In this document: piece by piece, positions 19,994 through 51,135 of the stretch
Numbering within the stretch: position 1 is the first letter of the stretch
Layout: each line of letters begins with the position of its first letter
Source of the DNA: an uncultured Rickettsiales bacterium
Lineage (GTDB): Bacteria > Pseudomonadota > Alphaproteobacteria > Rickettsiales > UBA1997
Direction of reading: 5' to 3'
DNA length: 64,000 bases
Assembly (NCBI GenBank): GCA_944391075.1
Contig: CALXSG010000001.1
Coordinates: 6,381 to 70,380 of the forward strand
The notes under the pieces: model-generated
Database searches by the model: none
What the model was told of the DNA's origin: nothing
Seen by the model: only the letters and a program-made list of their open reading frames with translations
Program-made: the position numbers and the translations under genes

Positions 19994-20710
19994 ATGATGA
20001 CCAATAGAATAACAAAATTTAATTTAAATACACATGATATCTGGAAAATGTTAGCACTATTGCTAATGTTTATAGATCATACTGGTTTGTATGTATTTAA
20101 TAATGATCCAAATTTTAGATTGATAGGCCGTCTTTCATTTCCAATATTTGCTGTAATTTATGGTTATCATTTCAAAGGTAAGATAAATACAAAGCTATTA
20201 TTATATGGTTTGCCAATAGTTATTGTAAATTATTATTTCAAAAATGAAATTTATTTTAATATTTTATATTCTTTTGTTGTAGGAGGTTTTATTCTAAAAT
20301 TTTACAATTCCAATTTAGATAAAAAGTATGATAAAATCTTCTTTTTATTAATAATGATGATGTTTAGTATAATTATCAATCCAATTTTAGAATATGGACT
20401 TTTTGCTTTCTTCTTTATGCTATCTGCTAATACAAAAAATATCAAAGAAAAAGCTACATACTTTTCTATTACATTTTTCTTATATTATCTATTTCAAGTG
20501 GATTCATTTGTTGAAAATATTTTTTACGTAATATTTTTATTTGCAACATTATTTATTGAAGCATGGTTATTATTTAAATATAGTATTAAAGATATTAATG
20601 TTGGTAATAAATATTTAGAATTATTTATTAAAATTTTTGCTAGATATAGTCTTGAAATATATGTAATACAGGCTGTTTTATTTAGAATTTACTTTTTTTG
20701 TTTAAAATAA
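19994..20710 (+). CDS. TraX-family integral membrane protein
   Basis: DIWKMLALLLMFIDHTG matches the TraX-family N-terminal motif (K..A...M..DH). The protein is polytopic and hydrophobic, 238 aa. Confidence 0.65.
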   Translation: MMTNRITKFNLNTHDIWKMLALLLMFIDHTGLYVFNNDPNFRLIGRLSFPIFAVIYGYHFKGKINTKLLLYGLPIVIVNYYFKNEIYFNILYSFVVGGFILKFYNSNLDKKYDKIFFLLIMMMFSIIINPILEYGLFAFFFMLSANTKNIKEKATYFSITFFLYYLFQVDSFVENIFYVIFLFATLFIEAWLLFKYSIKDINVGNKYLELFIKIFARYSLEIYVIQAVLFRIYFFCLK

Positions 20711-25197: not shown

Positions 25198-28100
25198 ATG
25201 CCAAACTTTAAGAAAAAGCCTATTGACGGAAATGAAGCAGTGGCAAGAATTGCTTATAAGATGAGTGATATGTTCGCAATATATCCTATCACACCTTCAT
25301 CACCAATGGGCGAATTAGCAGATCAATTTTCTGCAAGTGGAGAATTAAATATTTTTGGGTTAAAACCTAGCGTTACTGAAATGCAAAGTGAAGCTGGTGC
25401 CGCAGGTGCTTTACATGGTGCTTTACAAACAGGTAGCTTAGCTTCTACATTTACATGTTCACAAGGACTTTTATTAATGATTCCTAACATGTATAAAATT
25501 GCCGGTGAAATGACACCTTGTGTTATTCACGTTGCTGCTAGAGCATTAGCTGCACAAGGCTTATCAATTTTTGGTGATCATCAAGATGTTATGGCTGTTA
25601 GACAAACTGGCTTTGCTATGTTATCTAGTGGTTCAGTTCAAGAAGCTCATGATAGTGCTTTAATTTCTCATTTATCAACTCTTGATTCAAAAGTTCCATT
25701 TATTAATTTTTTTGATGGTTTTAGAACATCACACGAAATCAATAAAATTGAATTAATTGATGACGAAACCATTAAATCAATGCTCAATGAAGATGCAATT
25801 TTAGAATGCAGAAATAGAGCTTTAAAACCTGATGACCCAGTTATGAGAGGTACAGCTCAAAACCCTGATGTATATTTCCAAGGTAGAGAATCAACAAATA
25901 AATATTATAATAATGTACCTTCAATAGTTCAAGCTAAATTTGATGAATTTGCAAAATTAACAGGAAGACAATATCATTTATTTGACTACTATGGTCCAGC
26001 TGATGCTGAAAACATTATAGTTATGATGGGTTCAGGTGTTCAAGCTGTTAAAGAAACTATGGAAGTATTAAACAAAAATGGTGAAAAGGTTGGTGTATTA
26101 CAAGTTAGATTATTTAGACCTTTCTCAGCTAAACATTTAGTTAATGCTTTACCAAAAACAGTTAAGAAAATTGCTGTTCTTGATAGAACAAAAGAACCAG
26201 GAAGTGAAGGCGAACCATTATTCTTAGATGTTATTGCAGGATTAAAGGAAGAAGGAAAAGAAAATATTGAAGTAATTAAAGGTAGATATGGACTTTCTTC
26301 AAAAGAATTTACACCTGCAATGGCAAAAGCTGTTTATGATAATTTAAAATCATCAACACCTAAAAAAGAATTTACAGTTGGTATTAAAGATGATTTAACA
26401 AATTTAAGTTTAGACTATTCTAGTGATTTCAATATTTCATTACCGGATGTTAAAGAATCAATTTTCTTCGGTTTAGGTAGTGATGGTACAGTTGGTGCTA
26501 ACAAAAACACAATTAAAATCATTACAGATAGGGATGAATACTACGGACAAGCTTATTTCGTTTATGATTCTAAAAAATCAGGTTCTGTTACAGAATCACA
26601 TTTAAGATTTGGTCCTAAACCAATTAATTCAACATATTTAGTTCAAAAAGCTGACTTTATTGGTTGCCATCAATTCCCATTCTTATTCAAACTTGATATT
26701 TTAGGAAGAATTAAAGATGGTGGTACATTACTTTTAAATACCCACTATTCAAAAGATGAAGTATGGGATCAATTACCAAAAGTAGTTCAACAAATCATAA
26801 TTGATAAAAAGGTTAAATTCTACATAATAGATGCTTATAAAGTTGCTGACGAAGCTCATATGGGTACTAGAATTAACACAATTATGCAAACTTGTTATTT
26901 TAAACTTGCTAATGTTATTCCTTTTGAAGAAGCAGTTGCTGATATTAAAAATGCAATTGTTAAAACATATAGCAAAAAAGGACAAGAAATTGTTGATAAT
27001 AATATTAAAGCTGTTGATGGTTCTATTGCAAACTTATTTGAAGTTAATTATCCAAAAACTGTTTCAAGTAAAATTGAAATGGAAGAAAAAGTTGGAAAAG
27101 ATGCTCCTAAATTTATTCAAGAATTTACAGCTAAATTAATAGCAGGAAAAGGCGAAGAAATCACAACTTCACAAATGCCATTTGATGGAACTTTCCCAAC
27201 AGATACTACAAAATATGAAAAAAGAGATGTTGCTGATAAAATTTCAGTATGGGATGAAAGCAAATGTATTCAATGTGGTCAATGTGTATTTGCTTGTCCA
27301 CACTCTTGTTTAGAGTCAAAAGTATTTACAGCAGATCAATTAAAAAATGCTCCTTCTTGCTTTAAAGCAATTCCAGTTGTTGGAGATAAAACAGGGGAAC
27401 AAAAATTTAAAATTCAAATATCGCCAGAAGATTGCACTGGTTGTTCAATTTGTGTTTTAGCTTGCCCTGTTGGTGCTTTATCAATGAAACCAAAACAAGA
27501 AGTAATTAAAGAAGAAAAAGAATGTTTGGAATTCTTTAACACTCTTGAAGGAAAAGAAGTTGAAGATCCTAAGACAATTAAAGATTTACAATTTAAAGAT
27601 TCTTTATTCAAATATTCTGGTGCTTGTGCTGGTTGTGGTGAAACTCCACATTTATCACTATTGACAAAATTAGTTGGTGATAGAGCTGTTATTGCCAATG
27701 CAACAGGTTGTTCTTCTATTTATGGTGGAAACTTACCTACAACACCTTATGGAAAGAATAAAGAAGGTAGAGGTCCAGCTTGGTCTAACTCTTTATTTGA
27801 AGATGCAGCAGAATTTGGACTTGGTTTCAAATTAAGTCAAGAGACTCAATTAGTTGAAGCTAGTGATTTAATGGAAAAATTAAAAGATGTACTTGGTGCT
27901 GATTTAGTTAAAGCTATAATGGATAATTATGGAAATAACACTGATGCCGGAGTTAAAACTCAAATAGCTAACTTAAAGAAAGCAAAAGAAATTTTAGCTA
28001 AAAACAATTCATTCGAAGCTAAACATTTAGCATCTATTATTGATGTAATGCTTGAAAGAAGTGTATGGATAGTAGGTGGTGATGGTTGGGCTTATGATAT

Positions 28101-28707
28101 TGGCTTTGGTGGTTTAGATCATGTACTTGCTAGTGGAAAGAAAATTAGAGTATTAGTAATGGATACAGAAGTTTATTCTAACACTGGTGGTCAAGCTTCA
28201 AAAGCTACTAATTTAGGTGCAAGTGCTAAGTTTGCTGTAAATGGTAAAAATACATTTAAGAAAGACTTAGGTGCAATTATGATGAGTTATGGCAATGTTT
28301 ATGTTGCACAAGTTGCAATTAGAGCTAACCCAAATCAAGCTTTAAAAGCTTTCAAAGAAGCAGAAGCTTACGATGGTCCTTCTTTAATCATTGGTTATAG
28401 CTCTTGTATCGCTCATGGTGTTGCCCTTGAAAAGAGCTTTACACAACAAAAGAATTGTGTGGATTCTGGTATGTGGATGCTTTATAGATACAACCCAAGT
28501 TTAATTGCAGAAGGTAAAAATCCTTTACAAATAGATAGTAAAGAACCTAAATTAGACTTATTAGAGACATATTTATATGGCGAAACTAGATATAGCAATA
28601 TTAAAAAAGCTAATCCAGAACATGCAGCAGATATCGTTGAAATGTTAAAAGATCACATTACAAGACGATGGAAAAAATATAAATTGTTAGCTGATAATAA
28701 TTTATAA
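25198..28707 (+). CDS. nifJ: Pyruvate:ferredoxin (flavodoxin) oxidoreductase, single-chain NifJ/YdbK type
   Basis: 1169 aa. Contains GNEAVARIAYKMSDMFAIYPITPSS, two ferredoxin-type clusters (CIQCGQCVFACPH and CTGCSICVLACPVGA) and the TPP domain GGDGWAYDIGFGGLDHV. Confidence 0.95.
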   Translation: MPNFKKKPIDGNEAVARIAYKMSDMFAIYPITPSSPMGELADQFSASGELNIFGLKPSVTEMQSEAGAAGALHGALQTGSLASTFTCSQGLLLMIPNMYKIAGEMTPCVIHVAARALAAQGLSIFGDHQDVMAVRQTGFAMLSSGSVQEAHDSALISHLSTLDSKVPFINFFDGFRTSHEINKIELIDDETIKSMLNEDAILECRNRALKPDDPVMRGTAQNPDVYFQGRESTNKYYNNVPSIVQAKFDEFAKLTGRQYHLFDYYGPADAENIIVMMGSGVQAVKETMEVLNKNGEKVGVLQVRLFRPFSAKHLVNALPKTVKKIAVLDRTKEPGSEGEPLFLDVIAGLKEEGKENIEVIKGRYGLSSKEFTPAMAKAVYDNLKSSTPKKEFTVGIKDDLTNLSLDYSSDFNISLPDVKESIFFGLGSDGTVGANKNTIKIITDRDEYYGQAYFVYDSKKSGSVTESHLRFGPKPINSTYLVQKADFIGCHQFPFLFKLDILGRIKDGGTLLLNTHYSKDEVWDQLPKVVQQIIIDKKVKFYIIDAYKVADEAHMGTRINTIMQTCYFKLANVIPFEEAVADIKNAIVKTYSKKGQEIVDNNIKAVDGSIANLFEVNYPKTVSSKIEMEEKVGKDAPKFIQEFTAKLIAGKGEEITTSQMPFDGTFPTDTTKYEKRDVADKISVWDESKCIQCGQCVFACPHSCLESKVFTADQLKNAPSCFKAIPVVGDKTGEQKFKIQISPEDCTGCSICVLACPVGALSMKPKQEVIKEEKECLEFFNTLEGKEVEDPKTIKDLQFKDSLFKYSGACAGCGETPHLSLLTKLVGDRAVIANATGCSSIYGGNLPTTPYGKNKEGRGPAWSNSLFEDAAEFGLGFKLSQETQLVEASDLMEKLKDVLGADLVKAIMDNYGNNTDAGVKTQIANLKKAKEILAKNNSFEAKHLASIIDVMLERSVWIVGGDGWAYDIGFGGLDHVLASGKKIRVLVMDTEVYSNTGGQASKATNLGASAKFAVNGKNTFKKDLGAIMMSYGNVYVAQVAIRANPNQALKAFKEAEAYDGPSLIIGYSSCIAHGVALEKSFTQQKNCVDSGMWMLYRYNPSLIAEGKNPLQIDSKEPKLDLLETYLYGETRYSNIKKANPEHAADIVEMLKDHITRRWKKYKLLADNNL

Positions 28708-28767: not shown

Positions 28768-29295
28768 ATGAAAAAATATATACATAGTTTTTTAGTGGCA
28801 AGATTTCAACCATTTCATAACGGACATAAATCATTAATTGATAAAATGTTAAATGAATCAAAATATGCTACGATTATAGTTGGTTCAGCACAAGATAGTA
28901 GGAGTAGTAAAAATATTTTTAATGCAGAAGAAAGAATGTATATGCTTAAAAATGTTTATGGCGAAAAAGAGAATATGAATATTTTTTCTCTCAGTGATAT
29001 TCCTAGCAATGATGAATGGTATGGCTATGTTATGCAAAATCTTGCAGAAAAAAGCAAAAAATTTGGGAAGGTGGAAGCTTTTTATTGTGGTGGTATAGAT
29101 GAAGGCAAATGGTTTGATAAAGGAGAATTAAAGATCGAAATACTTGATAGAAATACACAAATTGGCAATTTAAAAATATCAGGCACAGAAATTAGAAATA
29201 TGATTAAAAATAATGATAATTTATGGAAAAATTATGTACCACAACAAAATATAAATTTTATAGAAAATTATATTAAAAAGAATAAAAACAATTGA
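28768..29295 (+). CDS. Nicotinamide-nucleotide adenylyltransferase (NadM/archaeal-type cytidylyltransferase fold)
   Basis: VARFQPFHNGHKSLIDKM carries the (H/T)xGH nucleotidyltransferase motif. A late ISGTEIRN-type motif is present. Length 175 aa. Confidence 0.75.
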   Translation: MKKYIHSFLVARFQPFHNGHKSLIDKMLNESKYATIIVGSAQDSRSSKNIFNAEERMYMLKNVYGEKENMNIFSLSDIPSNDEWYGYVMQNLAEKSKKFGKVEAFYCGGIDEGKWFDKGELKIEILDRNTQIGNLKISGTEIRNMIKNNDNLWKNYVPQQNINFIENYIKKNKNN

Positions 29296-31620: not shown

Positions 31621-34600
31621 CTATTTAACACATTGTACAGAACCAGTATATTGCCACTCAGCAACATTATTAATTACCACACATTTAGCTGTTCTAGTTC
31701 CAACTGTGGTTGTAGGACTATCACAGACTACTTTCTCTATCGTTCCATGACATACTGCATTACTGTGTGTATTGTTGCATGATGTAGAATATTCTTTCTC
31801 CCATCTTGCACCTTCTAATTTCTCTAAATTATTCATACTGCAAGTAATAGGTTCAAAACCGCCTACAATATTCCATTCTCCACGCTCATTACAATAAGCA
31901 TATGTTTCCATATTATTTTTGTAATTTGTCTTAGGTAATAAAGCAACACGTGAACCAATTGCAAATTTACTTTTATCATCATTATATTTTTTATTATTTT
32001 CAAAAACAATATCAGAGAAAGAGTTATCTTGAGGTATAAATGTTAAATCAGTAACTGATAATGTTTCTTGTCTTGGAAGACAACTTCCTAATTGATTACA
32101 CTTTGAAACTAAAGCATTAAAGCTACAAGATCTTGGTTCACATCTTCCCGTAGATTCCCATATTAAATCATTAGTATTCTCATCATAAACACATGTATAT
32201 TTTACTGTACTAGTATCTTCACAATCTATACATTCAAAAAGATTAGGGCAAAATCTATTTACTGAATATCCCTTGTATGATCTATTATTTAAAGTAATTT
32301 CACCAGAATAACCAGAATTTTTTGGATAATAAAGTTCTCTACTACTATCTATATTAATAATTTCTACATTTCCAATTTTTTTATTATATGATGGACACAC
32401 TTTTAATATGCAGGAATTATTTAAGGAATTAGAATCCCATTGTTGAGTTTGTATTATACAATTTTTACTAATTGTTCCACCTTCTTCATAATATCTTTTG
32501 TCACATTCACTTGTAACTCTTACTGAATTTGTATTATTAAAAATGTCTTCAGACAAAATTGATGAACTATTTAAAGAACCAACTATTTCTCTTTTTGCAA
32601 CAGCTGATGAATACTGTGATAAATCAGCATTATAAACATTTAATGAAGGGCATGCATTATATAGTCTACAAGGATTATGTACAGGTCCCCATGTTCCGTC
32701 AGGTAAGCATTCTCTATAAGGTCGTCCAGCAATCTTAATTGTAGTACCTGGTATTACATCATTTTTAGAACCATTGGATATAAATGTTATATTTTGATTA
32801 CTATTAACCAATTGACCATTTGCATTATATACTTGCATATTTGTTTTAATTGTTGAATCGCATTCACCAATTGCATACTGACCAGCTAGTGTTCTTCCCC
32901 AACGAGCACCACCAGTATAAATATCACCAACTTTAGTATTAGCATCTATTTCCTTATAATAATCATTTCTAAGATGCGGAGTTTTATATAAACCTAATAC
33001 TGTAACCTTTAAATTATTACCACTTCCTTCATATGTAAAATTAGTTCTAAATGGATCTAGTGGTTCACAAGCTTTTTCGCATTCATTTTCTATTGCACCC
33101 CATACACCATATTTATTACATCTTCTGGTTGGATGTTGTATTAGTGTAGTATTTTCAAAAAATTTCTTTAATTCTGGTTTAATTATACTGGAAATTGAAA
33201 TATTTGTTGCTGAAAATAAATTGTTATATTGCTTTTCAAAAGAAGAATATGAAATCTTTTGATTATCCATATTTGTGAAAGAATTTTGTAAGAAAATAGC
33301 ATTATGAGGATAAAAATGTTTAGACGCATCACAAGACCCTATAACATTTCTAATATCATTATCAGAAAGAGGTCCCGGTGTTTCTTGCCATGTAGCACCA
33401 CCAGTATGTCTCCAAACGGTATATACATTAATAGTATCTTCATTAGCAAAATAACCAACATTATAATCATCATCTAAGCCTAAAAATCTAGAGAATGGAG
33501 AGGTTGGATCTGCTTCATTACCTGCTAAATTAACTTCTGTATTATGTTCATCATATAAAAATAATGGTACGTCATTAGCAGATATTGCTTTACAGAAAGA
33601 TCTCTCACAATATTTTTTTGAATAATCAACACTAACTCCATATGTATTTGTTTCAATATTTGGATAAAGCATATTTTTATATGTATCTATTTTTACATAA
33701 CCATCACTATCTAAATCATGGAATGGAGCAGAATTTAAATTATATAAATTAATTTTATATTTTGTATAAATATCATCAACAGGCATCCATTGACCAACTT
33801 GATTACAATATCTAACAGGTAAATGATCTTTTGCATTATAATTTAAATTAATAATCATATCACTTGCACTAATGTAATCTTGATTTTCAAGTAACATATT
33901 TTTTACAAATTTATCAAAATATAACACTCCATCAGAAGCTGAATTATCAATTTTAACCGGATAATATTTATTAATTATTTTTGAGAAACCAGCAGGAACA
34001 TAGCCATATATACAGCTTTCAGCTGTTCTTTGCTCTATATCATCACCATGACCATTTTCAATACCATTATTTAAAGGTATTCCATCGATACTGTATGTGC
34101 CTTTTTTATATTCAGCCCAATTAGCGTAACCGTGCGATAAACCTTTTTTATTTGCATTGGTTGAATTTATTTCATTGGTATTTAATGTATATTTTTCTTC
34201 ACTTTTTACATAATTACTATCGTTTTCATTTACTGCAGGACAGGAATATCTTTCGCAATTTGTATTATTAGCCAATATGAAATTAGCATTTAGTGTACAT
34301 GTTGCTAATGGATTAATTGTATCATATGTACCATCATTTGATAATACTGTTTTATTTTTCCAAAAACCTTTACATTCACCTTCTGTAGCATATATTTCTA
34401 CATAACCATCTTGACAACTATCAGAAGTTTCATCGAGAATATAATAATGTCCAGTATTTGGATTGTGACAATATAAACTTTCTATATTAAAACTATCTTC
34501 TATATAAGGTCTCGACATATCAAATTCTGCATGTCCCATACTATCATTCTTGATTTTATCCTCTTTTGTTTCGTTTGTTCTCCAAATATTACTTTTATAT

Positions 34601-37600
34601 TTTTCTTGAATTACACTTAATTTTTCACCAATTCCACCATCACTATAATTTTTGTTTGAGTCATAATATTTTATTGGTTGGCAAATAGGTATAGTAGTTG
34701 CTTCTGCACATAAACCCAATTCTGTTGGTGTAGCCTTTCTAATTTCTTTTCCAGTTGTAACAATGGTAGTGTCTGCAGCATATTCACAGCTACAAACTGT
34801 ATTAATTTGATTTCCATCCTTTAACAATATTTTATAGCCGTTAGTTCCTGGTAAATAACATTCTTCAGGTAAATTGGTACAACTATTTGTTGCGCCATCA
34901 ACATCAGAACATTCACAACTATTTTTTTTAACACAAACATTTCCATATGCGCAATTGCATTCAGCAGTACCATTTAAACAAATACAATTTGGATCATTAT
35001 TGTCGGTACAATAAGTATAATAATGTGTTCTTCTGCAATTTGGGTTTTTTTTGCTTTCTGTATTTAGAATACACTTTCCTAATGTAGTGCCAGTGGACTT
35101 TATGGCTATAACATTAGGGAAATATGTATCAAAACCACTTACAATACATAAATTATTCTCTGCACCAATCGTATTATAATTAACAGGTATATTATTTTCC
35201 ACATTATATATTACATGACCAGCCTTAACTTCTTGATTATAGGTATTTATAATATTTTTTAATTCATTACTACAGTTATTATTTATTAAACACATTCTTA
35301 TTTTTACATAATTACTATGATATATATGAGCAATATTAGCCCGCTTTTGGTTTCCTATATTATATATTTTATCACCATTATATCCACGTATTGTTTTTAA
35401 TGAATAAATACCAGATGTTATATTATCACAGTACGTCTTTACAGTATTTTCACATCTTGATACTTTATTTGTTAGCTGTGTTATATTAGCGGTTATTGCA
35501 TTATATTCTGTCAACGCTTCTGGCGATTCATCTTTATTAATTGTTTCTAATTTTCTCTTCTCTATTATTAGTTGTTTCTTATAATTTATACAATCATAAT
35601 GTAATTCACTACAATAGCTAGCTTCAACTGTAATAGGATAAGTATGTGCCTCAGCTTTTGAATTTGGTGGTAACTTTAATTTTTCCTCTTTATCTGTTGG
35701 TGCATTACTTGAAACATTTTTAAATTGAATAGAATTACTACCATTTAAATTAATATTTTTTGTTTTATCTATTTTATCATTATCAATAAAATATACATTT
35801 AAATAAGGTTTAAAACTATTTGTATCTTTACCCATAGAAATTAATATTGAATTTAAATCAGGTTTTTTCCTTTTTATACACATAATTACAGATTCTACAG
35901 GATTTTTGTTTGCATCAAAACCTAATGGTCTAATTAAACAAACTTTAGGTACTATTTCACTGCCTTTTTCTGTTGTTTTTCTAAGGATATATTCTATCTC
36001 ATATTTTTTCTGGCTATCAGATATAGTTCTGCTTATTTCTGTTTTATCAAAAGGTATTGTATTTGTATCTTGCACATATTCAAAAATTACTGTCATTGTT
36101 GGTTTAAAAAAATCTACTTCTAAGCTTTGGTCTTCCTGTGTGTCTGTAAGTGTTTTATTTATTAAATTATTTGTTGTTGTATCATAAACATAAGCGGAAT
36201 AAATTTTTAATAATGGCAAAAATAAATTTTGTGAATTTAATGTAGTAGCATATTTGTAAAATTTATTAGGTGAGGCAGCTAAAGGTAAAGGTATTCCCTG
36301 AGATTCTTTAAAGAAATTCCCTTGCGCATCATAATATCCTCTACAATTTTGTAAATAACCAACTCTACAATTTGGATTGTTAATTTTTTGACCATCTTCA
36401 TTTATTACATATTGTGGTTGATTATTTCCGATATATTGAACAATATCCCATACAATCCATTTATCATTTGAGGCATATTTAGAGCCTATAGACATTTCTG
36501 TACAAATTGGATTTTTTATAGCATCATTTTCCCCACATTGAAAAATATTATGTAATTCTTCACCAAATACATCTTCATCTGTTATATATTCATAATTAGT
36601 ATTTATTCCGTCTTGATTTTCATCTACCCAATTTTTTAAGTTATTATCGTCTAATAAATTTTCTCCAACAAGTTTACCTTTGTACTCAGTAATTGAATAA
36701 TTTTGATTATTAAATATATCGCCACTGGAATTTAAAGTTATTTTACTCTCAGATAAAACGCTTTTCATAAAATCAGTATCACCACCACTAGATTTTGAAG
36801 CATCTACAAATACATACAATTTACCATTAATTTTATTTATTCTAAATCTTACCTTATTATTTTTTCCATTTTCTGTTACCACTTTATAACAAGTTAACTT
36901 TTTATTAGGATCGGTTTCTGCATTATTCATGTCAGCTTCTACTGCATCCATTGTGCAGTCTGGACCTTCTCTATTCCATTTTAAAGTAACGCATTTATCA
37001 ATGCCACACACTTGTTTCATTGTATTGCAATCATTATCAGCACAGGTAATAACGCATTCTCTAGCACCACAAAGCTTTGTATCTTTATAATACGATGATA
37101 CTCTTAGACATACTTCAACTTCAACTGATTCAATTTCTGCTTTATTAGTTGACCAATTAAAAATAGGAGTTCCTTTTATATAATAACCATCTGTTCTTGG
37201 TGTTAAATTGGTATGATCTACCTCAATATTGCATAAAGCACTTCTACCAGAATTATCTTGAACACTATGACTAAGATTATTTGCATTTTCACATATTGGT
37301 ATAGAAAGAGCATTTGAGTATAAAGTTATAAAATCTTGAGCATTATTATTTCTACTAAAATAATAATCTCCTTCATTCCACCAAAATAAATCATGGACTC
37401 TATTAGAATGAGCTTGTCTAAATCCATATGTTTTAAAATCATTAACATTAGCAAAACATATATTATCTCTATTTGATGTATATATTCCATTCTTTATATA
37501 ATTAAAATAATCTTTTAAATAACTACTATTATTTGTATTATCAAATTTTAAATCAATGTATTTTGTATGAAAAAGACCTGCAGTATTTCTAGTTGCTTGT

Positions 37601-38997
37601 AATATTTGTCCGGGTTTGGCTGGTAATGGTTTAACTGGTACACCGCGCATTAATCTCTTGATTACAGTAACCAACATTAAATCTGTGTCAACATTATTAC
37701 TTGATAAATTATATATACCATAGTAGTCCTGTAAATCATACCGTGTAGAATAAATTGTATTTGCTAAATTATTACCATTAGAAATTGAATCTCTTTTTAT
37801 TGCCAATATTTCCGTTGATGTTTGTGACGGAAATGGCCTATAAAAATATGATAAAAAATTATCGGGTTCATCATTATTTGTCGCATCCTGGTTTATTGCA
37901 CCACATAAAGGATTTAAATTATTTTGTAATAAAGCACAATCCACTGTTTGTTGGCAAAAACCAGCTACACATCTCTGAGGATTTACTAAATAATTTTTTA
38001 CAATATTATTTATTGTAGCATTATTCCCTATTGTTGTATTTTCAAAATTTTTATCAATTCCCGTATATGTATCGCACATACTATTTAGTACTGTATTACA
38101 TTCTAGTTGATTGCTACGTCTATAATTTTGACAATATATAGAACTACATGTAGATGTTAATACTGAATAATTATTACTACTATTTGATGATACAAATAGT
38201 TTTTCTATATATTTTTGTTGATAATTTTCACTTCTTATTATTTTATTATTATCATTCGTATCTCTATAACCAAAAAGCCAGAAATTTGTATAACATGTTA
38301 AGCTGTCACTAGATGACGGAGGGCATTGGTGTATCATGCATTGAAAAAGATCATTGCCTGCTCGATCTTTTAAGCCACGAATATTTGGAATTAAATAATC
38401 AAGATCTTGTTCAGCAAATTCATGACAATACGTATATTCATCTGTAATTATACCTACACTCATAGAATTTCCTAATGAATTTCTAACAGATTTATTCTTA
38501 TATTTGTAGGGATTGCAAAAATTATATTTTATATTATCGATTCCATATGTTTGTAAGTATATAGTTTCCAATTCTTCATTTGTCAAGTCAAGACAACTTT
38601 TTTTATAACAATTTACAACTGGATTACCATTACTATCATAGCCTGGTGTTGGAAAATATAATTTTCTATCACCATTTTCATCGATATATGTATCGGAACA
38701 ATATCTTACTTTAAGACAAGTTGGGTACAAGCCATTAAACGCTTCTGGTAAATTATCTGATGGATAAGTAACCCAAGCTGCTCCAACCGTAGATTCACCT
38801 ATATCACCACAATATGGCAAATATATTATATTATCAACATGTTCTTCTGGTAAAAAATTTTGAGTTAGTATATACCTTGTTTGATCTCCATAAGTTGTTG
38901 GAGACTTTCCATAAGAAAAATAAGGTATAAAGAACAAAAACAAAGTTATTATTGCTAACTTCTCACGAAATAAAATAAAAACTTTATTTTTTATCAT
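31621..38997 (-). CDS. Giant (2458 aa) secreted, cysteine-rich protein with Sushi/CCP-like and EGF-like cysteine modules. Function unknown; probably a surface or host-interaction protein.
   Basis: Uninterrupted 7.4-kb ORF. GAGG sits 5 nt upstream of the ATG. Signal-like MIKNKVFILFREKLAIITLFLFFIPYFSYG. Cys occurs throughout. Repeated C..C..G.W..C-x-CP patterns, e.g. YRECLPDGTWGPVHNPCRLYNACPS. Confidence 0.9.
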   Translation of the reverse strand: MIKNKVFILFREKLAIITLFLFFIPYFSYGKSPTTYGDQTRYILTQNFLPEEHVDNIIYLPYCGDIGESTVGAAWVTYPSDNLPEAFNGLYPTCLKVRYCSDTYIDENGDRKLYFPTPGYDSNGNPVVNCYKKSCLDLTNEELETIYLQTYGIDNIKYNFCNPYKYKNKSVRNSLGNSMSVGIITDEYTYCHEFAEQDLDYLIPNIRGLKDRAGNDLFQCMIHQCPPSSSDSLTCYTNFWLFGYRDTNDNNKIIRSENYQQKYIEKLFVSSNSSNNYSVLTSTCSSIYCQNYRRSNQLECNTVLNSMCDTYTGIDKNFENTTIGNNATINNIVKNYLVNPQRCVAGFCQQTVDCALLQNNLNPLCGAINQDATNNDEPDNFLSYFYRPFPSQTSTEILAIKRDSISNGNNLANTIYSTRYDLQDYYGIYNLSSNNVDTDLMLVTVIKRLMRGVPVKPLPAKPGQILQATRNTAGLFHTKYIDLKFDNTNNSSYLKDYFNYIKNGIYTSNRDNICFANVNDFKTYGFRQAHSNRVHDLFWWNEGDYYFSRNNNAQDFITLYSNALSIPICENANNLSHSVQDNSGRSALCNIEVDHTNLTPRTDGYYIKGTPIFNWSTNKAEIESVEVEVCLRVSSYYKDTKLCGARECVITCADNDCNTMKQVCGIDKCVTLKWNREGPDCTMDAVEADMNNAETDPNKKLTCYKVVTENGKNNKVRFRINKINGKLYVFVDASKSSGGDTDFMKSVLSESKITLNSSGDIFNNQNYSITEYKGKLVGENLLDDNNLKNWVDENQDGINTNYEYITDEDVFGEELHNIFQCGENDAIKNPICTEMSIGSKYASNDKWIVWDIVQYIGNNQPQYVINEDGQKINNPNCRVGYLQNCRGYYDAQGNFFKESQGIPLPLAASPNKFYKYATTLNSQNLFLPLLKIYSAYVYDTTTNNLINKTLTDTQEDQSLEVDFFKPTMTVIFEYVQDTNTIPFDKTEISRTISDSQKKYEIEYILRKTTEKGSEIVPKVCLIRPLGFDANKNPVESVIMCIKRKKPDLNSILISMGKDTNSFKPYLNVYFIDNDKIDKTKNINLNGSNSIQFKNVSSNAPTDKEEKLKLPPNSKAEAHTYPITVEASYCSELHYDCINYKKQLIIEKRKLETINKDESPEALTEYNAITANITQLTNKVSRCENTVKTYCDNITSGIYSLKTIRGYNGDKIYNIGNQKRANIAHIYHSNYVKIRMCLINNNCSNELKNIINTYNQEVKAGHVIYNVENNIPVNYNTIGAENNLCIVSGFDTYFPNVIAIKSTGTTLGKCILNTESKKNPNCRRTHYYTYCTDNNDPNCICLNGTAECNCAYGNVCVKKNSCECSDVDGATNSCTNLPEECYLPGTNGYKILLKDGNQINTVCSCEYAADTTIVTTGKEIRKATPTELGLCAEATTIPICQPIKYYDSNKNYSDGGIGEKLSVIQEKYKSNIWRTNETKEDKIKNDSMGHAEFDMSRPYIEDSFNIESLYCHNPNTGHYYILDETSDSCQDGYVEIYATEGECKGFWKNKTVLSNDGTYDTINPLATCTLNANFILANNTNCERYSCPAVNENDSNYVKSEEKYTLNTNEINSTNANKKGLSHGYANWAEYKKGTYSIDGIPLNNGIENGHGDDIEQRTAESCIYGYVPAGFSKIINKYYPVKIDNSASDGVLYFDKFVKNMLLENQDYISASDMIINLNYNAKDHLPVRYCNQVGQWMPVDDIYTKYKINLYNLNSAPFHDLDSDGYVKIDTYKNMLYPNIETNTYGVSVDYSKKYCERSFCKAISANDVPLFLYDEHNTEVNLAGNEADPTSPFSRFLGLDDDYNVGYFANEDTINVYTVWRHTGGATWQETPGPLSDNDIRNVIGSCDASKHFYPHNAIFLQNSFTNMDNQKISYSSFEKQYNNLFSATNISISSIIKPELKKFFENTTLIQHPTRRCNKYGVWGAIENECEKACEPLDPFRTNFTYEGSGNNLKVTVLGLYKTPHLRNDYYKEIDANTKVGDIYTGGARWGRTLAGQYAIGECDSTIKTNMQVYNANGQLVNSNQNITFISNGSKNDVIPGTTIKIAGRPYRECLPDGTWGPVHNPCRLYNACPSLNVYNADLSQYSSAVAKREIVGSLNSSSILSEDIFNNTNSVRVTSECDKRYYEEGGTISKNCIIQTQQWDSNSLNNSCILKVCPSYNKKIGNVEIINIDSSRELYYPKNSGYSGEITLNNRSYKGYSVNRFCPNLFECIDCEDTSTVKYTCVYDENTNDLIWESTGRCEPRSCSFNALVSKCNQLGSCLPRQETLSVTDLTFIPQDNSFSDIVFENNKKYNDDKSKFAIGSRVALLPKTNYKNNMETYAYCNERGEWNIVGGFEPITCSMNNLEKLEGARWEKEYSTSCNNTHSNAVCHGTIEKVVCDSPTTTVGTRTAKCVVINNVAEWQYTGSVQCVK

Positions 38998-39026
38998 TTA
39001 TACCTCAAAATAATTAAAAAGAATTT

Positions 39027-39236
39027 CTATTCTTCTACAACTGGAATTGTTTTCCAAGCAATAGGTTTTCCATTGGCATCCATTATGATATTGTTGGTTT
39101 TAGCATATTTAGCGGCCATATAAATACCGTCGCCAGCATATAAACCAACATATTTAATTGGTTCAACTTCCTTTCCATCATACATTTTCTTGCCACCAGA
39201 TGCACCTTTATTTTTAGGGTTATTTTTTGTAGCCAT
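39027..39236 (-). CDS. Small basic hypothetical protein (69 aa) immediately upstream of, and probably co-transcribed with, the giant gene
   Basis: ORF MATKNNPKNKGASGGKKMYDGKEVEPIKYVGLYAGDGIYMAAKYAKTNNIIMDANGKPIAWKTIPVVEE. Its stop lies 29 nt before the giant gene's ATG on the same strand. Confidence 0.5.
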   Translation of the reverse strand: MATKNNPKNKGASGGKKMYDGKEVEPIKYVGLYAGDGIYMAAKYAKTNNIIMDANGKPIAWKTIPVVEE

Positions 39237-39371
39237 TTCTTTCCTTATATTAATAATATTAAAAATATAAGAAAATTATATATCTTAAATTTATTTTTTC
39301 AAGAAAAATTAACATTTATTATAGACTTATAAAAAAAATATTTTATATTCATAAAAATATTTAGTTTATTT

Positions 39372-40517
39372 ATGTCAATTTCAATTTATATTCATTACCC
39401 ATTTTGCAAGTCTAAATGTCCTTATTGTGATTTTAATTCTTATTGTAATTTAAAAATTGATGAAGAAGACTTAATAAAGTCATATCTTAATGAAATTGAA
39501 TACTATAAAGATATTATTAAAGATAAAATAATTAACACAATATATTTTGGTGGTGGCACCCCATCACTTATGAGCGAAAAACTTTTAAGTAATATAATGA
39601 ATAAAATTAATTCATTATACAAAATTAATCAAAATTGTGAAATAAGTTTAGAAAGCAACCCAAATAGCATCAATTATGAAAAATTAAAAAGTTTTAAAGA
39701 TATTGGTATAAATAGATTATCAATAGGAGTGCAGTCATTAATTGATGAAGATTTAAAATTTTTAGGAAGAATACATAATAAAAATGAAGCAATAGAAGCA
39801 ATAAATAATGCACAAAAAATTTTTAACGATAAATATTCAATAGACTTAATTTATGGAAGACCTAATCAAAATTTAAATGAATGGAAAGAAGAATTAAATG
39901 AAGCGATAAAATTATCACCATTTCATATTTCTTTATATCAACTTATAATAGAAAAAGGAACTCCTTTTTATAGAAATAAAATTCAAACACCAAATGAAGA
40001 TATAGCTACAAAGCTTTATGAAAAAACAAACAATATACTTGAAAAAAACAATATATTTCAATATGAGATTTCTAATTATGCTAAAAATGGTTATGAATGT
40101 AAACATAATTTAGTTTATTGGAATAATGGTGAATGGATTGGTATAGGTGCAGGAGCACATGGACGAATAAATATTAATCAAAAAAGATATAGTATTCAAA
40201 ATTTAAAAAAACCATTAAATTGGCTTGATAAGACATTAAAAAATAAAAATGGTATTAGTATTAAAAAATTATTATCAAAACAAGAAATTATAGAGGAATA
40301 TTTAATAATGGGACTAAGAATCAAAGATGGTATTAAAATAAAAAATTTACAAAAAAATATAGATTGTAATAGTTTTTATGACATTTTAGATAAAAGCAAT
40401 ATAGAATTTCTTGTTAAATTAAATTTAATTAATGCTAATGATAAAAATATTAAATTAACAAAAAATGGCTTTCTATTGCTTAATTCTATAATAGAAAAGT
40501 TAGCTCCTAATAATTAA
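39372..40517 (+). CDS. hemW: Radical SAM heme chaperone HemW (HemN-like, oxygen-independent coproporphyrinogen oxidase family)
   Basis: IYIHYPFCKSKCPYCDFNS (CxxxCxxC radical-SAM motif), YFGGGTPS, and a HemN_C-like tail. Confidence 0.88.
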   Translation: MSISIYIHYPFCKSKCPYCDFNSYCNLKIDEEDLIKSYLNEIEYYKDIIKDKIINTIYFGGGTPSLMSEKLLSNIMNKINSLYKINQNCEISLESNPNSINYEKLKSFKDIGINRLSIGVQSLIDEDLKFLGRIHNKNEAIEAINNAQKIFNDKYSIDLIYGRPNQNLNEWKEELNEAIKLSPFHISLYQLIIEKGTPFYRNKIQTPNEDIATKLYEKTNNILEKNNIFQYEISNYAKNGYECKHNLVYWNNGEWIGIGAGAHGRININQKRYSIQNLKKPLNWLDKTLKNKNGISIKKLLSKQEIIEEYLIMGLRIKDGIKIKNLQKNIDCNSFYDILDKSNIEFLVKLNLINANDKNIKLTKNGFLLLNSIIEKLAPNN

Positions 40518-40522
40518 TTTAA

Positions 40523-41188
40523 TTAATTTTCAGCGGAAATAATAAATACTAATGATAATACCGAAAATATATAAGCTTGAATTATACTACTTATAAAGGT
40601 AAGTATACTTAAAAATATTGGAAAACCAAGAGCTAAAAAAGCTATTTGAGAAACAACAGCTGTAATAATCATGCCACTCATCATATTTCCATATAACCTA
40701 ATTGCTAATGCACAATTACTAGAAATATCACTAATTATATTCATAACAAGCATAACTGGTGTTGGTTTTAAATATTTTTTTAAATAACCTAAAACACCAA
40801 CTTGTCTAATACCATATATAAGTCCCAAAGAAACTGTGACAATTACAATAGCAATATTTGTTGATAATGAAGCTGTTGGCGAATAAAAATAAGGAATTAA
40901 TTGTAATAAATTTGCACCCAATATAAATAAAAACATAGTTGCAATAAAAGGAAATACAAAATTTATATCAACTTTTCCCATCTTTTCAACTTGATCTTTT
41001 ATACCATAAATCAGTATTTCAAAAAAGTTTTGTAATTTACCAATATTTTTTTCATGAGTTAAAGCTAATCTTAAAATTATTGCAACTGTAATAACAAAAG
41101 CCATCAATATCCAAGTGAATAGAATTGTATTATTTATCTTGAAAAAGCCATTTTGCCATACAATTATTTGATCTGGTGTAATATTCAT
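40523..41188 (-). CDS. atpB: F/N-type ATP synthase subunit a
   Basis: LAIRLYGNMMSGMII contains the essential stator Arg motif. The protein is polytopic. I place the start at MNITPDQ (ATG 41188-41186), which forms an ATGA overlap with the stop of the upstream small ORF. The track ORF extends to 41275. Confidence 0.88.
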   Translation of the reverse strand: MNITPDQIIVWQNGFFKINNTILFTWILMAFVITVAIILRLALTHEKNIGKLQNFFEILIYGIKDQVEKMGKVDINFVFPFIATMFLFILGANLLQLIPYFYSPTASLSTNIAIVIVTVSLGLIYGIRQVGVLGYLKKYLKPTPVMLVMNIISDISSNCALAIRLYGNMMSGMIITAVVSQIAFLALGFPIFLSILTFISSIIQAYIFSVLSLVFIISAEN

Positions 41189-41451
41189 TTTTTTGTCCTT
41201 TGAATTTTTGCTAAAATTATAAAAAATACTTTCGCAACAGTAAAACCAATCAGCATTAAAATAGCATTTTGCCACTTTTTATCTAAAAATACATATACTA
41301 TTGTTGCAATAATGAATAATCTAATGAGTAAACTTGATATAGCAACTGCTACACTTTTTTTCTCCAATATTTTTTTAATAGTCCACTTTAATGCTAAAGA
41401 ATTTAATATTCCAATCATTAAACCAATAAAAATTAAAAAAATACTATACAT
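41185..41451 (-). CDS. Small ATP-synthase-associated membrane protein, AtpR-like (N-ATPase) or AtpI-like
   Basis: 88 aa with 3 hydrophobic helices and an Arg inside a helix (SSLLIRLFIIATIV). It is translationally coupled (ATGA) to atpB. Confidence 0.55.
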   Translation of the reverse strand: MYSIFLIFIGLMIGILNSLALKWTIKKILEKKSVAVAISSLLIRLFIIATIVYVFLDKKWQNAILMLIGFTVAKVFFIILAKIQRTKK

Positions 41452-41582: not shown

Positions 41583-42350
41583 ATGACTAAAATAGTTTTT
41601 TGGGATTATGATGGAACCCTTGTAGATACAGAGACTGCTTATAAAAATTCATTAATTTATTTTTTAAATGAAAAAAATTTAGCTTTAAAACCACTTGACG
41701 ATAATTTTTTTTATAAGTTTATTTCTGGAAATCATCCAGAAGGTTTTTTAAACGAAATGGAAAAACAAGGTTATATAGCTAATGCAAATGATATTAGTTC
41801 TGATGATATTAGAATATATTATGATAAATATTTTGCTAGTCTAAAAAAAGGTGATGTTAAAGTTATAGATAATGTTGACAATATTATTGGAGAAATTGCA
41901 AAACAAAAAGATATTTTTATGTGTATTACAACTTCTTCTTACCCAAAAGGTTTTGAAATCAAAAATAGTAAAGTGAATAGTCCTATTTTAGATTCTATTT
42001 TTAAATTAGATAACAATATTTACTTATGCGGAGCTATAAGTGATTGTAAATTTAAACCTAGTCCTGATATATATTTTTATGCATTTAATAATATAATAAA
42101 AAGAAATAATTTACAACCAATGGAAAATGATACATTATTTATTGTAGAAGATTCAAAAACTGGTTGCATAGCAAGTAATAATTTTAAAAATACTATTGAT
42201 AGCAAAATTAATGTTAAAATAATTGGTTATACAGCCGGCATGCAATATGAACCATATAAACAAGAATATATTAATAAACTAATTGATGCAGGTACTGATT
42301 TAATAGCGAATACATCAAAAGATTTATTAAAATTTATAATTAATCAATAG
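41583..42350 (+). CDS. HAD-superfamily hydrolase
   Basis: IVFWDYDGTLVDTE (DxDGT motif I), ITTSS (motif II) and VEDSKTG (motif IV-like). Confidence 0.8.
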   Translation: MTKIVFWDYDGTLVDTETAYKNSLIYFLNEKNLALKPLDDNFFYKFISGNHPEGFLNEMEKQGYIANANDISSDDIRIYYDKYFASLKKGDVKVIDNVDNIIGEIAKQKDIFMCITTSSYPKGFEIKNSKVNSPILDSIFKLDNNIYLCGAISDCKFKPSPDIYFYAFNNIIKRNNLQPMENDTLFIVEDSKTGCIASNNFKNTIDSKINVKIIGYTAGMQYEPYKQEYINKLIDAGTDLIANTSKDLLKFIINQ

Positions 42351-42851
42351 TTTAACAGAATGTAAATTATCTTTAAAATAATTGTGAATTTTAATTCTTT
42401 GTATGTCATATTCAAAATTTATTCTCCATTTAGGGGCTAATTCATAACTTACACCAGCACCATATAATAACATAAAATCTAATTTATCTTTTGTGTTATT
42501 TATGTTGTTGAAATTATATTTTGTAAAAGAAGCACCGATATTTCCATAAACAGCTAATTTATATGTAATATTATAGCCGATATTATAACTTGCGCCATAT
42601 CTATATTTTACATTAAGATAATTATTATTAAAATTATTTTCTATATTTAAAAAATCATAAAATATTTCCGTACCTAAAATAAATCTATTAGAATTCCATA
42701 AAATTTTATAAGAAAAATTAAAATTTAAATTATTTTCTAATTCTTTAACTTTTGATTGTCCTATTCCTAAACCAATAGAACTACCTAATGTTAAAGCATA
42801 AGTATTTTGTGTAATAAAAAACAAAAATATAAGATTTAATGACTTTTTCAT
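42327..42851 (-). CDS. Small outer-membrane beta-barrel protein
   Basis: Signal peptide MKKSLNLIFLFFITQNTYA, alternating aromatic/polar beta-strand pattern, and a C-terminal ..LLINYKF (terminal Phe). Confidence 0.7.
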   Translation of the reverse strand: MKKSLNLIFLFFITQNTYALTLGSSIGLGIGQSKVKELENNLNFNFSYKILWNSNRFILGTEIFYDFLNIENNFNNNYLNVKYRYGASYNIGYNITYKLAVYGNIGASFTKYNFNNINNTKDKLDFMLLYGAGVSYELAPKWRINFEYDIQRIKIHNYFKDNLHSVKLLINYKF

Positions 42852-42944
42852 TAAGTTTCTTATTAAAGTTTACTTATCTTTAAAATATCTTGAAAAAATA
42901 TATTGTCAATTGTATATTCTTTTTAATACATAATCAAAAACAAT

Positions 42945-43901
42945 ATGATAAATAAAAAGATATTTTTTATATGTTTACTTTTTGTAAATAATTTATTTGC
43001 TACTGTTAGAATTGCTGTGCCATATGATTTAGAGACTACTGAATTAAATAAAGAACAAAGAGATAAACTTCAAAATATTAAGAATCAAGAATCTATTAGC
43101 ATGCCTGAACAATATAAAGGCCCATTAAAATATACAGAAGGTGAAGAAGAAGTTAAATTAAGAGATGTTGCCCTATCTTTAGGTATTGGGGGTAGATATA
43201 CATTTATAAATGATATAGAATTAACATCAAATTTAGATTTAACAGGTAGTGCTACTTATTTTAACAAAATTAATAAGTGGAAAATGAAAAATAATTTTAA
43301 TTTTTTTGCTTCAGCTGGTTTATATTGGAGAAATGGTTTTAGAATTGAATTAGAATATTCAGAAATGACTATTGATACAGCAAATTATGGAGAAGATTTT
43401 GCAAGATATAATAGTGGTTTAGGTGCTGGTATTATTTTTAATCAATATTTACAACATGCAGCTATAATATCAAACTATGATGGCATAACTAGACTATCTA
43501 ATAATATGTTACCAGTAGCCGAATTGTCATTAAAAACATATATGTTAAATTTTATATTTGAAAAAACAAAAGTTAATTCTAAAGTAAGGCCATACTTAGG
43601 TTTTGGTTTTGGTATGGTTAATGGTGATTTTTCAAGTCTTGTAAATGAAGGTGGTTCAAAAGTATTTGGTGCGCAAGCTATGGTTGGTTTATCGTATGTT
43701 ATTTCTCCTGAACAAGTGGTTGCTTATTTAGGTTATAGAATATTATATATGAAAGAGATGGAACAAACTTTTACAAGACTTATTGGTGCAAATAATTTTG
43801 ATGGAAATGTATATTATGATCCTGTATTTAAACAATCTACTGAGACATATCAAGTTCCAATTTTACATAATATAGATTTAGGTTTTAAATTCTTCTTTTA
43901 A
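42945..43901 (+). CDS. Outer-membrane beta-barrel protein (porin/surface-antigen like)
   Basis: Signal peptide, beta-strand periodicity (GLYWRNGFRIELEYSEM, PYLGFGFGMVNGDF), and a C-terminal DLGFKFFF. Confidence 0.7.
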   Translation: MINKKIFFICLLFVNNLFATVRIAVPYDLETTELNKEQRDKLQNIKNQESISMPEQYKGPLKYTEGEEEVKLRDVALSLGIGGRYTFINDIELTSNLDLTGSATYFNKINKWKMKNNFNFFASAGLYWRNGFRIELEYSEMTIDTANYGEDFARYNSGLGAGIIFNQYLQHAAIISNYDGITRLSNNMLPVAELSLKTYMLNFIFEKTKVNSKVRPYLGFGFGMVNGDFSSLVNEGGSKVFGAQAMVGLSYVISPEQVVAYLGYRILYMKEMEQTFTRLIGANNFDGNVYYDPVFKQSTETYQVPILHNIDLGFKFFF

Positions 43902-44116: not shown

Positions 44117-44144
44117 TTATTTAATCTCATTATTTATAATATGA

Positions 44145-46157: not shown

Positions 46158-46271
46158 TTAAAATAATATAACAGGTATTTTCTTTATTTCAAGAAAAAAT
46201 TAAAGATAAAAACTTGTTATTTCAAATAATATATTATAGACTACTAATAGTATATAATTTTAAATATATTA

Positions 46272-49601: not shown

Positions 49602-49606
49602 AGCTA

Positions 49607-51127: not shown

Positions 51128-51135
51128 ATAATAAC

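Follow-up and report, generated by a model that had tools for sequence, protein, structure and literature searches.

The variable surface proteins of Rickettsiales include the Sca autotransporters (rOmpA/rOmpB), the Msp2/P44/OMP-1 proteins of the Anaplasmataceae and the Wolbachia protein WSP. In chlamydial elementary bodies the cysteine-rich envelope proteins OmcB and OmcA are cross-linked through disulfides; OmcB also serves as an adhesin and is not known for extreme allelic divergence. Arrays of CCP/Sushi/SCR modules (PF00084) are carried by CD55, CD46, factor H, C4BP, CR1/CR2, beta2-glycoprotein I and poxvirus VCP/SPICE. Here a giant gene is described and compared with these systems. It occupies positions 31621..38997 on the minus strand of a 64-kb stretch of DNA (the whole stretch that was analysed, from contig CALXSG010000001.1 of an uncultured Rickettsiales bacterium, assembly GCA_944391075.1; hereafter the window) and encodes a protein of 2458 residues. 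The reading put forward, to which about even chances are given, is that of a Sec-exported, disulfide-stabilised protein acting at the host interface, for example an adhesin or antigen, under diversifying selection.

The giant protein resembles the variable surface proteins of Rickettsiales in belonging to a host-associated, Rickettsiales-labelled lineage, in diverging fast relative to housekeeping genes and in having mosaic alleles. It differs from them in having neither an autotransporter nor a Surface_Ag_2 barrel and in being rich in Cys and composed of eukaryote-type modules. In systems of the Msp2/P44 type variation arises by gene conversion from silent, partial donor copies in the same genome; in the other 56.6 kb of the window tblastn found neither such cassettes nor paralogous fragments. 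By analogy, the protein may function in the manner of the variable proteins that host-associated bacteria and parasites carry on their surface.

Divergence of the gene was measured against its flanks. In the GTDB species representative (L001), the flanking DNA is 94% identical to the window over 12.8 kb and the flanking proteins are 93-99% identical (synonymous divergence, dS, 0.10-0.27; non-synonymous divergence, dN, 0.007-0.035), whereas the giant gene, which is intact, encodes a protein only 40-45% identical (dN 0.51, dS 0.89). Its dN is two to five times the dS of the neighbours, and the protein is more divergent than the adjacent Surface_Ag_2 outer-membrane protein (61%). A second locus (L013), which carries the homologue P0002, shows where the divergence lies. 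Its flanking proteins are 91-100% identical to those of the window (dS 0.07-0.27); residues 1-1600 of the giant protein are 56-73% identical (dN 0.18-0.35, dS 0.45-1.2) and residues 1601-2458 are 94-99% identical (dS 0.03-0.23). The nucleotide identity drops from about 97% to 65-80% exactly over residues 1-1600 and then recovers. On comparison of strains, the fast-diverging, block-exchanged part of the protein was delimited to residues 31-1600 (34198..38907, minus strand).

The 15 homologous proteins fall into three deep allele classes, which are 40-45% identical to one another, and within the set the two ends of the protein do not share one history. P0001 and P0002 are 62% identical in the N-terminal part and 96% in the C-terminal part, and P0010 and P0015 give a similar contrast (68% and 96%); for P0002 and P0004 the values are 78% and 68%, and for P0013 and P0015 they are 85% and 80%. 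The N- and C-terminal parts have been reshuffled among alleles, which are mosaics of exchanged blocks. Among variants that are 92-100% identical to the protein of the window over most of its length, residues 1-200 are 68-90% identical and the C-terminal tip 85-90%. A role at the host interface is proposed because the giant gene diverges far faster than its neighbours and has mosaic alleles, and the extracytoplasmic role suggested by the original prediction, which had been made from the DNA before any database search, fits this extreme divergence. The hypervariability itself had escaped that prediction, whose interpretation is borne out in part.

The gene has close and distant relatives. A search of 5.8 billion protein clusters returned 15 homologue clusters, all full-length (2405-2647 residues, 39-100% identical), none of which has a Pfam domain or a name. 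Shorter family members come from short contigs in every case, and no other truncation was seen. The exact 2458-residue protein is present on at least 23 contigs from separate assemblies, each allele class is represented by several independent members, and intact copies occur in the sister genomes L001 and L002. The giant gene is real, maintained and whole in every relative examined. For more remote homologues, a profile of residues 1508-2458 was searched exhaustively against 1.84 billion representative proteins (E<=0.001) and 32 proteins were recovered in all. About 12 of these are long collinear relatives of 1706-4811 residues with 3.0-4.7% Cys, in which homology to the family profile reaches into the N-terminal half, and those with a named source come from other assemblies labelled Rickettsiales. 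The GTDB representatives that bear homologues are labelled 'uncultured Rickettsiales bacterium', and their isolate names (BRZ_AG, Nepal_MoBio, E06, E20) hint at an origin in stool. A second, word-indexed search with the family profile added no members.

The whole protein of the window has no match in Pfam or NCBIfam even at E<=1. Nothing on the family was found in the literature on gut Rickettsiales, bacterial Sushi domains and termite-gut symbionts, and the article on Hepatincolaceae (PMC11724238) offers no link to it. The family is undescribed: it uses modules of the CCP/HRM superfamily and belongs to no curated family. Of the outcomes that the original prediction had named as speaking against it, disruption of the reading frame in close relatives and a clear match to a characterised family were not found.

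At the level of the gene, the open reading frame (ORF) comprises an ATG, 2458 codons and a stop (31621-31623), 7377 nt in total or 11.5% of the window, in agreement with the predicted uninterrupted frame of more than 11%, for which no strand had been given. It is preceded by the Shine-Dalgarno sequence GAGG (39003..39006, minus strand), read 5 nt before the ATG, and it lies in DNA of 20-32% GC, so that the good ribosome-binding site and the AT-rich composition that had been noted were both borne out. Given the base composition of the window, 2458 consecutive codons would stay free of stops with a probability of about 1e-97, and shuffling the window 20 times gave open runs of at most 139 codons; the ORF is therefore not due to chance. 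The GC content at third codon positions (GC3) is 0.126 in the giant gene and 0.124 in neighbouring genes, so it is not a recent import, and recent horizontal transfer from a eukaryote was rejected for the same reason. No long homopolymer tracts or terminators were found within or around the gene.

Residues 1-30 (38908..38997, minus strand) form a probable Sec signal peptide. The sequence MIKNKVFILFREKLAIITLFLFFIPYFSYG, followed by KS, is the sole hydrophobic segment of the giant protein on the Kyte-Doolittle scale. Eight N-terminal residues (M1, N4, K5, L9, F10, L19, F20, P25) are invariant in the 15 close homologues, and most of the distant homologues likewise begin with a signal-peptide-like sequence. 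The protein is thus probably exported through Sec, as had been predicted, with a putative cleavage between SYG and KS. Other routes were considered and rejected. A lipoprotein would have a lipobox Cys at the cleavage site, and the first Cys of the giant protein is residue 63; an autotransporter or other type V protein, including TpsA, was rejected on the lack of a Pfam match for a barrel or TPS domain and on a C-terminus modelled as CCP; and an RTX/type I adhesin was rejected on the signal-peptide-like N-terminus, the lack of an RTX match and a Cys content of 3.9%. No membrane anchor or beta-barrel was found at the C-terminus of the giant protein. These results, with the empty Pfam and NCBIfam searches, agree with the original prediction, in which no enzymatic motif and no RTX, autotransporter or beta-barrel signature had been recognised. 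Genes for LpxB and LptA in the window indicate that an outer membrane is present.

The protein contains 96 Cys (3.9% of residues, against a mean of 1.08% over the 44 other ORFs of the window), an enrichment of about 3.6-fold, so that the protein deserves to be called cysteine-rich and the 'hyper' in the original description was too strong. The recurring spacings that had been noted are real: 21 C-x(3-5)-C doublets are present, 9.6 +/- 2.8 are expected under random placement, and 21 were reached in 2 of 5000 trials. A C..C..W..C pattern is repeated through the last ~950 residues. Alignment of the 15 proteins shows that 89 of the 96 Cys (93%) and 19 of the 23 Trp are invariant, with 3-41% for other residue types. 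The variable Cys, four in number, come as two pairs, one of residues 1363 and 1373 and one of residues 2439 and 2456, and each of the four is present in 8 of the 15 sequences. Because the Cys are invariant, and variable ones are gained and lost pairwise, the giant protein probably contains about 48 structural disulfides, and the predicted dependence on disulfides is supported. The strong constraint that had been attributed to the protein holds for its scaffold of Cys, Trp, Gly, Pro and aromatic residues; only this scaffold is conserved, and the remainder is the fastest-evolving sequence of the region.

Such a composition recalls OmcB and OmcA, which are likewise Sec-exported, Cys-rich, disulfide-dependent envelope proteins of obligately host-associated Gram-negative bacteria. 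In size the giant protein exceeds them four- to fivefold, and neither Pfam nor the PDB profile search detected a similarity to them in sequence or fold. A structural protein of the envelope, located in the periplasm or on the periplasmic side of the outer membrane and cross-linked by disulfides in the manner of OmcB/OmcA, would agree with a signal peptide that is accompanied by no recognisable module for outer-membrane translocation or anchoring, with the very high content of invariant Cys and with the lack of a secretion system in the window. An internal protein, however, is not expected to be a mosaic and the most divergent gene of its region (40-45% against flanks of 94% nucleotide identity), and Cys that are spread evenly and in pairs point to bonds formed inside the modules of one molecule, more than to free Cys available for cross-linking. 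An envelope scaffold is accordingly considered unlikely.

Folds were modelled with two AlphaFold2 runs based on the 15-sequence alignment, which covered residues 31-1230 (mean predicted local distance difference test, pLDDT, 45.2) and 1259-2458 (42.5). The models of the two halves were then compared with known structures by Foldseek, the check that had been proposed with the original prediction, and it was informative for the C-terminal ~340 residues, which returned CCP arrays, and empty for the N-terminal half. Residues 2114-2458 (31624..32658, minus strand) are modelled at a pLDDT of about 60-87 as four to five compact CCP/Sushi-type modules that extend to the C-terminus. For residues ~2118-2458, all 50 matches listed from the PDB were CCP/Sushi arrays; the best was beta2-glycoprotein I (1.5e-7), SPICE, CD46, CD55, factor XIII B, CR1, CR2, C4BP and factor H were also among them, and two-module matches reached template modelling (TM) scores of 0.55-0.64. 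The modules end at C2196, C2286 and C2386 and are connected by the linkers CILKVCP and CEPRSCS, and an invariant Trp is located 6-10 residues before the final Cys of those ending at C2196 and C2286. A CCP fold is proposed for the last ~340 residues with moderate confidence, on the basis of the models.

The preceding part, residues 1508-2113 (32659..34476, minus strand), consists of a short Cys-rich unit (1508-1584) and three long HRM/Sushi-like modules at about 1585-1800, 1801-1975 and 1976-2113. Each long module ends with R-x-C-x3-G-x-W-x(5-10)-C, and the modules are joined by C-x(3-5)-C linkers (CERYSCP, CERSFC, CEKACEP, CRLYNACP). In the AlphaFold2 model this part has a pLDDT below 50, and its relationships come from sequence comparison. 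The non-family matches of the exhaustive search were solely proteins of Pfam-verified HRM/Sushi repeats, which are uncharacterised and lysine-poor, one of them carrying a protein-kinase domain, and which are not vertebrate complement regulators. When a profile of 51 Pfam-verified HRM/Sushi repeats from outside the family was compared, in a small search space, with the protein of the window, it matched residues 2067-2111 (8e-9), 1955-1975 (2e-5) and 2029-2051 (0.017), and more weakly 1727-1740 (0.26) and 1579-1602 (0.16). Pfam HRM (PF02793) matched 2 of the 15 members weakly (best E=6.5e-4) and did not match the protein of the window. A full-length profile gave one weak match among PDB sequences, to the Sushi-like ectodomain of the GLP-2 receptor. 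The similarity of residues 1585-2113 to HRM/Sushi repeats is thus supported.

In one allele class (class B: P0006, P0007, P0009 and the gene at 10001-17878 of L001) an additional Cys-rich insertion is found at window residues ~1528-1542, for instance CYNEYTKCLSQEECEVNPEKCFTPDECKNRYEKCLQNSTC. It is located in the first short C-terminal unit and adds to the higher number of Cys in the proteins of this class, 119-120 compared with 96 in the window.

Comparison with the named families gives a mixed picture. The giant protein is like CCP/Sushi arrays in that its last ~340 residues are small beta modules whose structural neighbours, among the 50 matches listed, are solely such arrays, in that its modules have four Cys with a Trp between the third and the fourth, and in that linkers of 3-5 residues separate them. 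It is unlike them in module length (80-100 residues, and 140-215 upstream, against ~60), in the failure of the Pfam Sushi profile, in being bacterial and in carrying the array as the tail of a chain of 2458 residues, the rest of which matches no known fold. The four-Cys pattern is present in the modules ending at C1797, C1973, C2110, C2196, C2286 and C2386; their Cys are invariant, as is the Trp, except that it is nearly invariant in the module ending at C2386. As regards membership in Sushi/CCP, the Pfam profile failed, the Cys/Trp pattern is present, with C-x(3-5)-C linkers between modules longer than the canonical ~60 residues, and the beta fold arranged as beads on a string was obtained for ~2118-2458 only. 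Beyond the family itself, sequence comparison relates the protein solely to HRM and the metagenomic HRM/Sushi repeat proteins: dozens of Pfam-verified repeats match the motif R-x-C-x3-G-x-W-x(5-7)-C at ~2087-2111, 1955-1975 and 1727-1740. This similarity spans only ~25-45 residues per module, the halves of the modules are split by long insertions in the giant protein, and the protein of the window itself is unmatched by Pfam HRM. When the eight putative modules were compared with one another by hhalign, the pair 1801-1975 and 1976-2113 was the only significant one (94% probability), and self-BLASTP of the giant protein found no internal repeats; the modules therefore appear to be old and not recent duplicates.

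In the N-terminal part, residues 31-1600 hold segments delimited by Cys doublets (63-365), a 10-Cys knot (630-703) and a 24-Cys cluster (1284-1440). The N-terminal half is mostly modelled at a pLDDT below 50 and reaches moderate confidence only at two places. Residues ~930-1071 (35785..36210, minus strand) form an all-beta domain (pLDDT 67-88), the best-modelled stretch of this half. Residues ~1129-1191 (35425..35613, minus strand) form a long helical hairpin (helices 1129-1152 and 1159-1191, pLDDT ~60-78). It is bracketed by the Cys pairs C1129/C1136 and C1182/C1190, all four invariant, and would be stapled by two disulfides. Foldseek gave no match for the N-terminal half against PDB and BFVD at E<=0.001.

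The fold of the C-terminal modules bears on the immune or complement-like mimicry that the original prediction had mentioned among possible roles. As to fold, the guess of complement-like modules holds, all matches listed for the C-terminal ~340 residues being CCP/Sushi arrays; mimicry as such is not supported, Pfam Sushi failing and the nearest sequence relatives of the modules not being vertebrate complement regulators. In its full form the proposal is that of a released mimic of eukaryotic receptors, in which the HRM/Sushi/CCP array would copy an extracellular protein of the host and bind ligands or regulators of that host (in an animal, regulators of the complement type; in a protist, surface receptors) and the N-terminal part would be a carrier. 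The C-terminal fold and motif are otherwise typical of extracellular proteins of eukaryotes and of viral complement mimics, and HRM/Sushi-repeat proteins were the only non-family matches among the 1.84 billion representatives. On the other hand, there is no close eukaryotic donor, the matches being at the level of motifs (~25 residues, E 1e-5 to 5e-11), the codon composition is the same as that of the genome, and the modules are highly divergent from one another, which points to an old residence. A released mimic is regarded as improbable, to the same degree as the envelope scaffold.

According to the preferred reading, that of a host-interface protein, the signal peptide would route the giant protein through Sec, and about 48 disulfides would be formed in the periplasm, locking a chain of small modules, as the Cys pattern suggests. 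The protein (~270 kDa) would then be displayed on the cell surface or released to the medium. The C-terminal third, an HRM/Sushi/CCP string of beads that is the conserved part in some strain comparisons, may serve as a constant stalk or binding region, and the N-terminal ~1600 residues together with the extreme tips may constitute the variable, partner-facing part, as in other variable surface proteins. Alleles would diversify by exchange of blocks between lineages and be kept apart by diversifying or balancing selection, the selective agent being presumed.

Several observations weigh against this reading. The ratio dN/dS is below 1 in every interval compared (0.06-0.82), with dS raised along with dN, and the divergence may reflect recombinational import of old alleles and not fast positive selection. 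About 70% of the residues are modelled at a pLDDT below 50, the CCP assignment depends on the alignment of 15 sequences with a pLDDT of 60-87, and Pfam Sushi (PF00084) matches none of the 15 family members at E<=10. No genes for Dsb proteins or for type I, type II or type V secretion systems were found in the window, so the difficulty of crossing the outer membrane, raised in the original prediction, stands. Finally, the orientation as stalk and head is drawn by analogy, and in the comparison with P0003 the C-terminal tip is divergent as well. A dS that climbs along with dN, at dN/dS values of 0.06-0.82, is most simply read as the result of old allele lineages being exchanged block-wise by recombination and held distinct by selection, and recent runaway positive selection is less likely. 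Under either of them the giant gene behaves like an exposed, partner-facing molecule.

Block exchange between strains in a very large mosaic gene would also be expected of a polymorphic toxin or another protein of inter-bacterial competition, with the variable parts as exchangeable effector modules. This is very improbable, since no toxin, immunity, Rhs/YD, RTX, TPS or PAAR signature was found in Pfam, the variable part consists of 1600 Cys-scaffolded residues that are collinear in all alleles and is not a swapped C-terminal cassette, and the gene downstream on the same strand is no small ORF of the immunity kind, miaA coming next on the opposite strand. A metagenomic mis-assembly, or a pseudogene that has stayed open, is hardly credible: although the data all come from metagenome assemblies, in which chimeric contigs could in principle yield mosaics, every allele recurs on independent contigs, which excludes assembly chimeras as the cause of the mosaics, the identical protein recurs in separate assemblies, a frame of this length is not due to chance, dN/dS is below 1 and the Cys are invariant.

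The giant gene is linked to a small one. An ORF of 69 codons (MATKNNPKNKG...; 39027..39236, minus strand), a probable operon partner, is located 29 nt upstream of it, and the same ORF is found directly upstream of the giant gene in 10 of 11 loci (the window, L001-L004, L008, L009, L010, L013 and L014), the exception being L007, where none was found ahead of the giant homologue. Coordinates in other loci are 9763-9972 in L001, 9043-9252 in L003, 369-578 in L008, 5733-5933 in L009 and 3124-3333 in L010. In the distant loci L008, where it precedes a homologue of 4154 residues, L009 and L010, the small ORF is kept and the outer flanking genes differ. Its product keeps 96% identity in a comparison that gives 40-45% for the giant protein; across loci the values are 52-100% for the former and 25-73% for the latter. 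It has no signal peptide, and no relative was found in Pfam or PDB. The family of the small protein is wider (169 clusters), some of its members being named from Rickettsiales or Pelagibacterales metagenome-assembled genomes. In two large contigs (L011 and L012) the ORF stands between pgk and a hydrolase gene and the giant gene is absent, and in L009 the order is pgk, small ORF, giant gene. On the basis of its occurrence next to pgk without the giant gene and of the order in L009, it seems that the giant gene came to lie behind a small gene that is itself conserved, and that the two stayed together through rearrangements. In L009, the locus of the distant homologue P0040, a DsbA/thioredoxin-family gene (2461-3264, minus strand) was also observed, ~2.7 kb upstream of the giant gene.

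The two genes may be co-transcribed, in which case transcription would start from a promoter upstream of the 69-aa ORF. The best promoter-like site in a consensus scan of the region, TTGAAA-16-TATAAT (39275..39302, minus strand; 11 of 12 matches), is present there. Sites of this kind are not above chance in the region (78, against 68 +/- 7 expected), and it is a weak candidate for the promoter of both genes.

The neighbours of the giant gene include those for pyruvate:ferredoxin oxidoreductase, dnaN, miaA, hemW, ATP synthase subunits and a Surface_Ag_2 outer-membrane protein, which fit a Gram-negative, anaerobic, host-associated bacterium. Three ORFs around the giant gene (25198-28707, 28768-29295 and 39372-40517, all on the plus strand) encode a single-chain pyruvate:ferredoxin oxidoreductase, a nicotinamide-nucleotide adenylyltransferase whose best matches, to models of archaeal type, fall below the cut-offs, and HemW, a radical-SAM protein. 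Together these point to an anaerobic way of life, and in a genome labelled Rickettsiales that would be unusual. The a-subunit of ATP synthase (40523-41275, minus strand) has its best NCBIfam match with TIGR03306, 'alternate F1F0 ATPase' (203 bits, below the cut-off of 302), and in L005 an AtpR-family ORF (7580-7813) precedes this subunit, which hints at an operon of the N-ATPase type. The genes for the gamma, alpha and b subunits are separate, at 48699-51882.

Other genes near the giant gene encode an outer-membrane beta-barrel protein (42327-42851, minus strand), the Surface_Ag_2 protein (42945-43901, plus strand) and an M3 peptidase with an MscS-type channel (44117-48600). In the comparison of L001 with the window, the block formed by 42327-43901 and 44117-48600 is 73-79% identical in nucleotides, against 94% for most of the flanking DNA. 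The small outer-membrane protein (42327-42851) has no BLASTP match in L001 at E<=1e-5 and the Surface_Ag_2 protein is 61% identical; fast-evolving envelope genes are therefore found within 3-10 kb of the giant gene. At the edge of the window, an ORF of 722 codons (199-2367, minus strand; 2.35% Cys) matches the ALK/LTK glycine-rich domain PF12810 (E=1.7e-14); its product is a second protein of the window whose domain is familiar chiefly from extracellular receptors of eukaryotes. A DUF2460 protein (53534-54127, plus strand; E=1.7e-59), of a family that occurs in phage-tail or gene-transfer-agent clusters, and a TraX-family protein (19994-20710, plus strand; E=5e-12) may be remnants of mobile elements.

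A bolder form of the host-interface reading, which is offered tentatively and thought to have only a small chance of being correct, is that the giant protein is a strain-specific, hypervariable 'key' of HRM/Sushi/CCP modules which sets the host cell or genotype that can be attached to or entered, its old allele classes being maintained by balancing selection and shuffled by recombination. If this were true, the protein would be to bacteria what the variant cysteine-rich surface proteins are to eukaryotic parasites, and a so far undescribed mechanism of outer-membrane export for a heavily disulfide-bonded cargo would be implied. If, in addition, the host were the human or animal gut epithelium and not a protist, the protein would decide on escape from complement-type or mucosal immunity.

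About two dozen relatives are found among 1.84 billion representative proteins, and every full-length one is giant, at about 1900-4800 residues, and Cys-rich. The protein is a candidate host-contact molecule for an uncultured lineage that, judging by record names, apparently belongs to human stool metagenomes. With alleles of 40-45% identity between flanks of 94% nucleotide identity, the gene could serve as a natural marker by which strains are typed and as a case in which to study balancing selection and recombination. It also raises the question of how a Gram-negative cell, with none of the usual machinery apparent nearby, folds and displays a protein of 270 kDa with about 48 disulfides. Bacterial arrays of the CCP type are rare and, if function follows fold, this family would bear on the use of extracellular eukaryote-type modules by symbionts.

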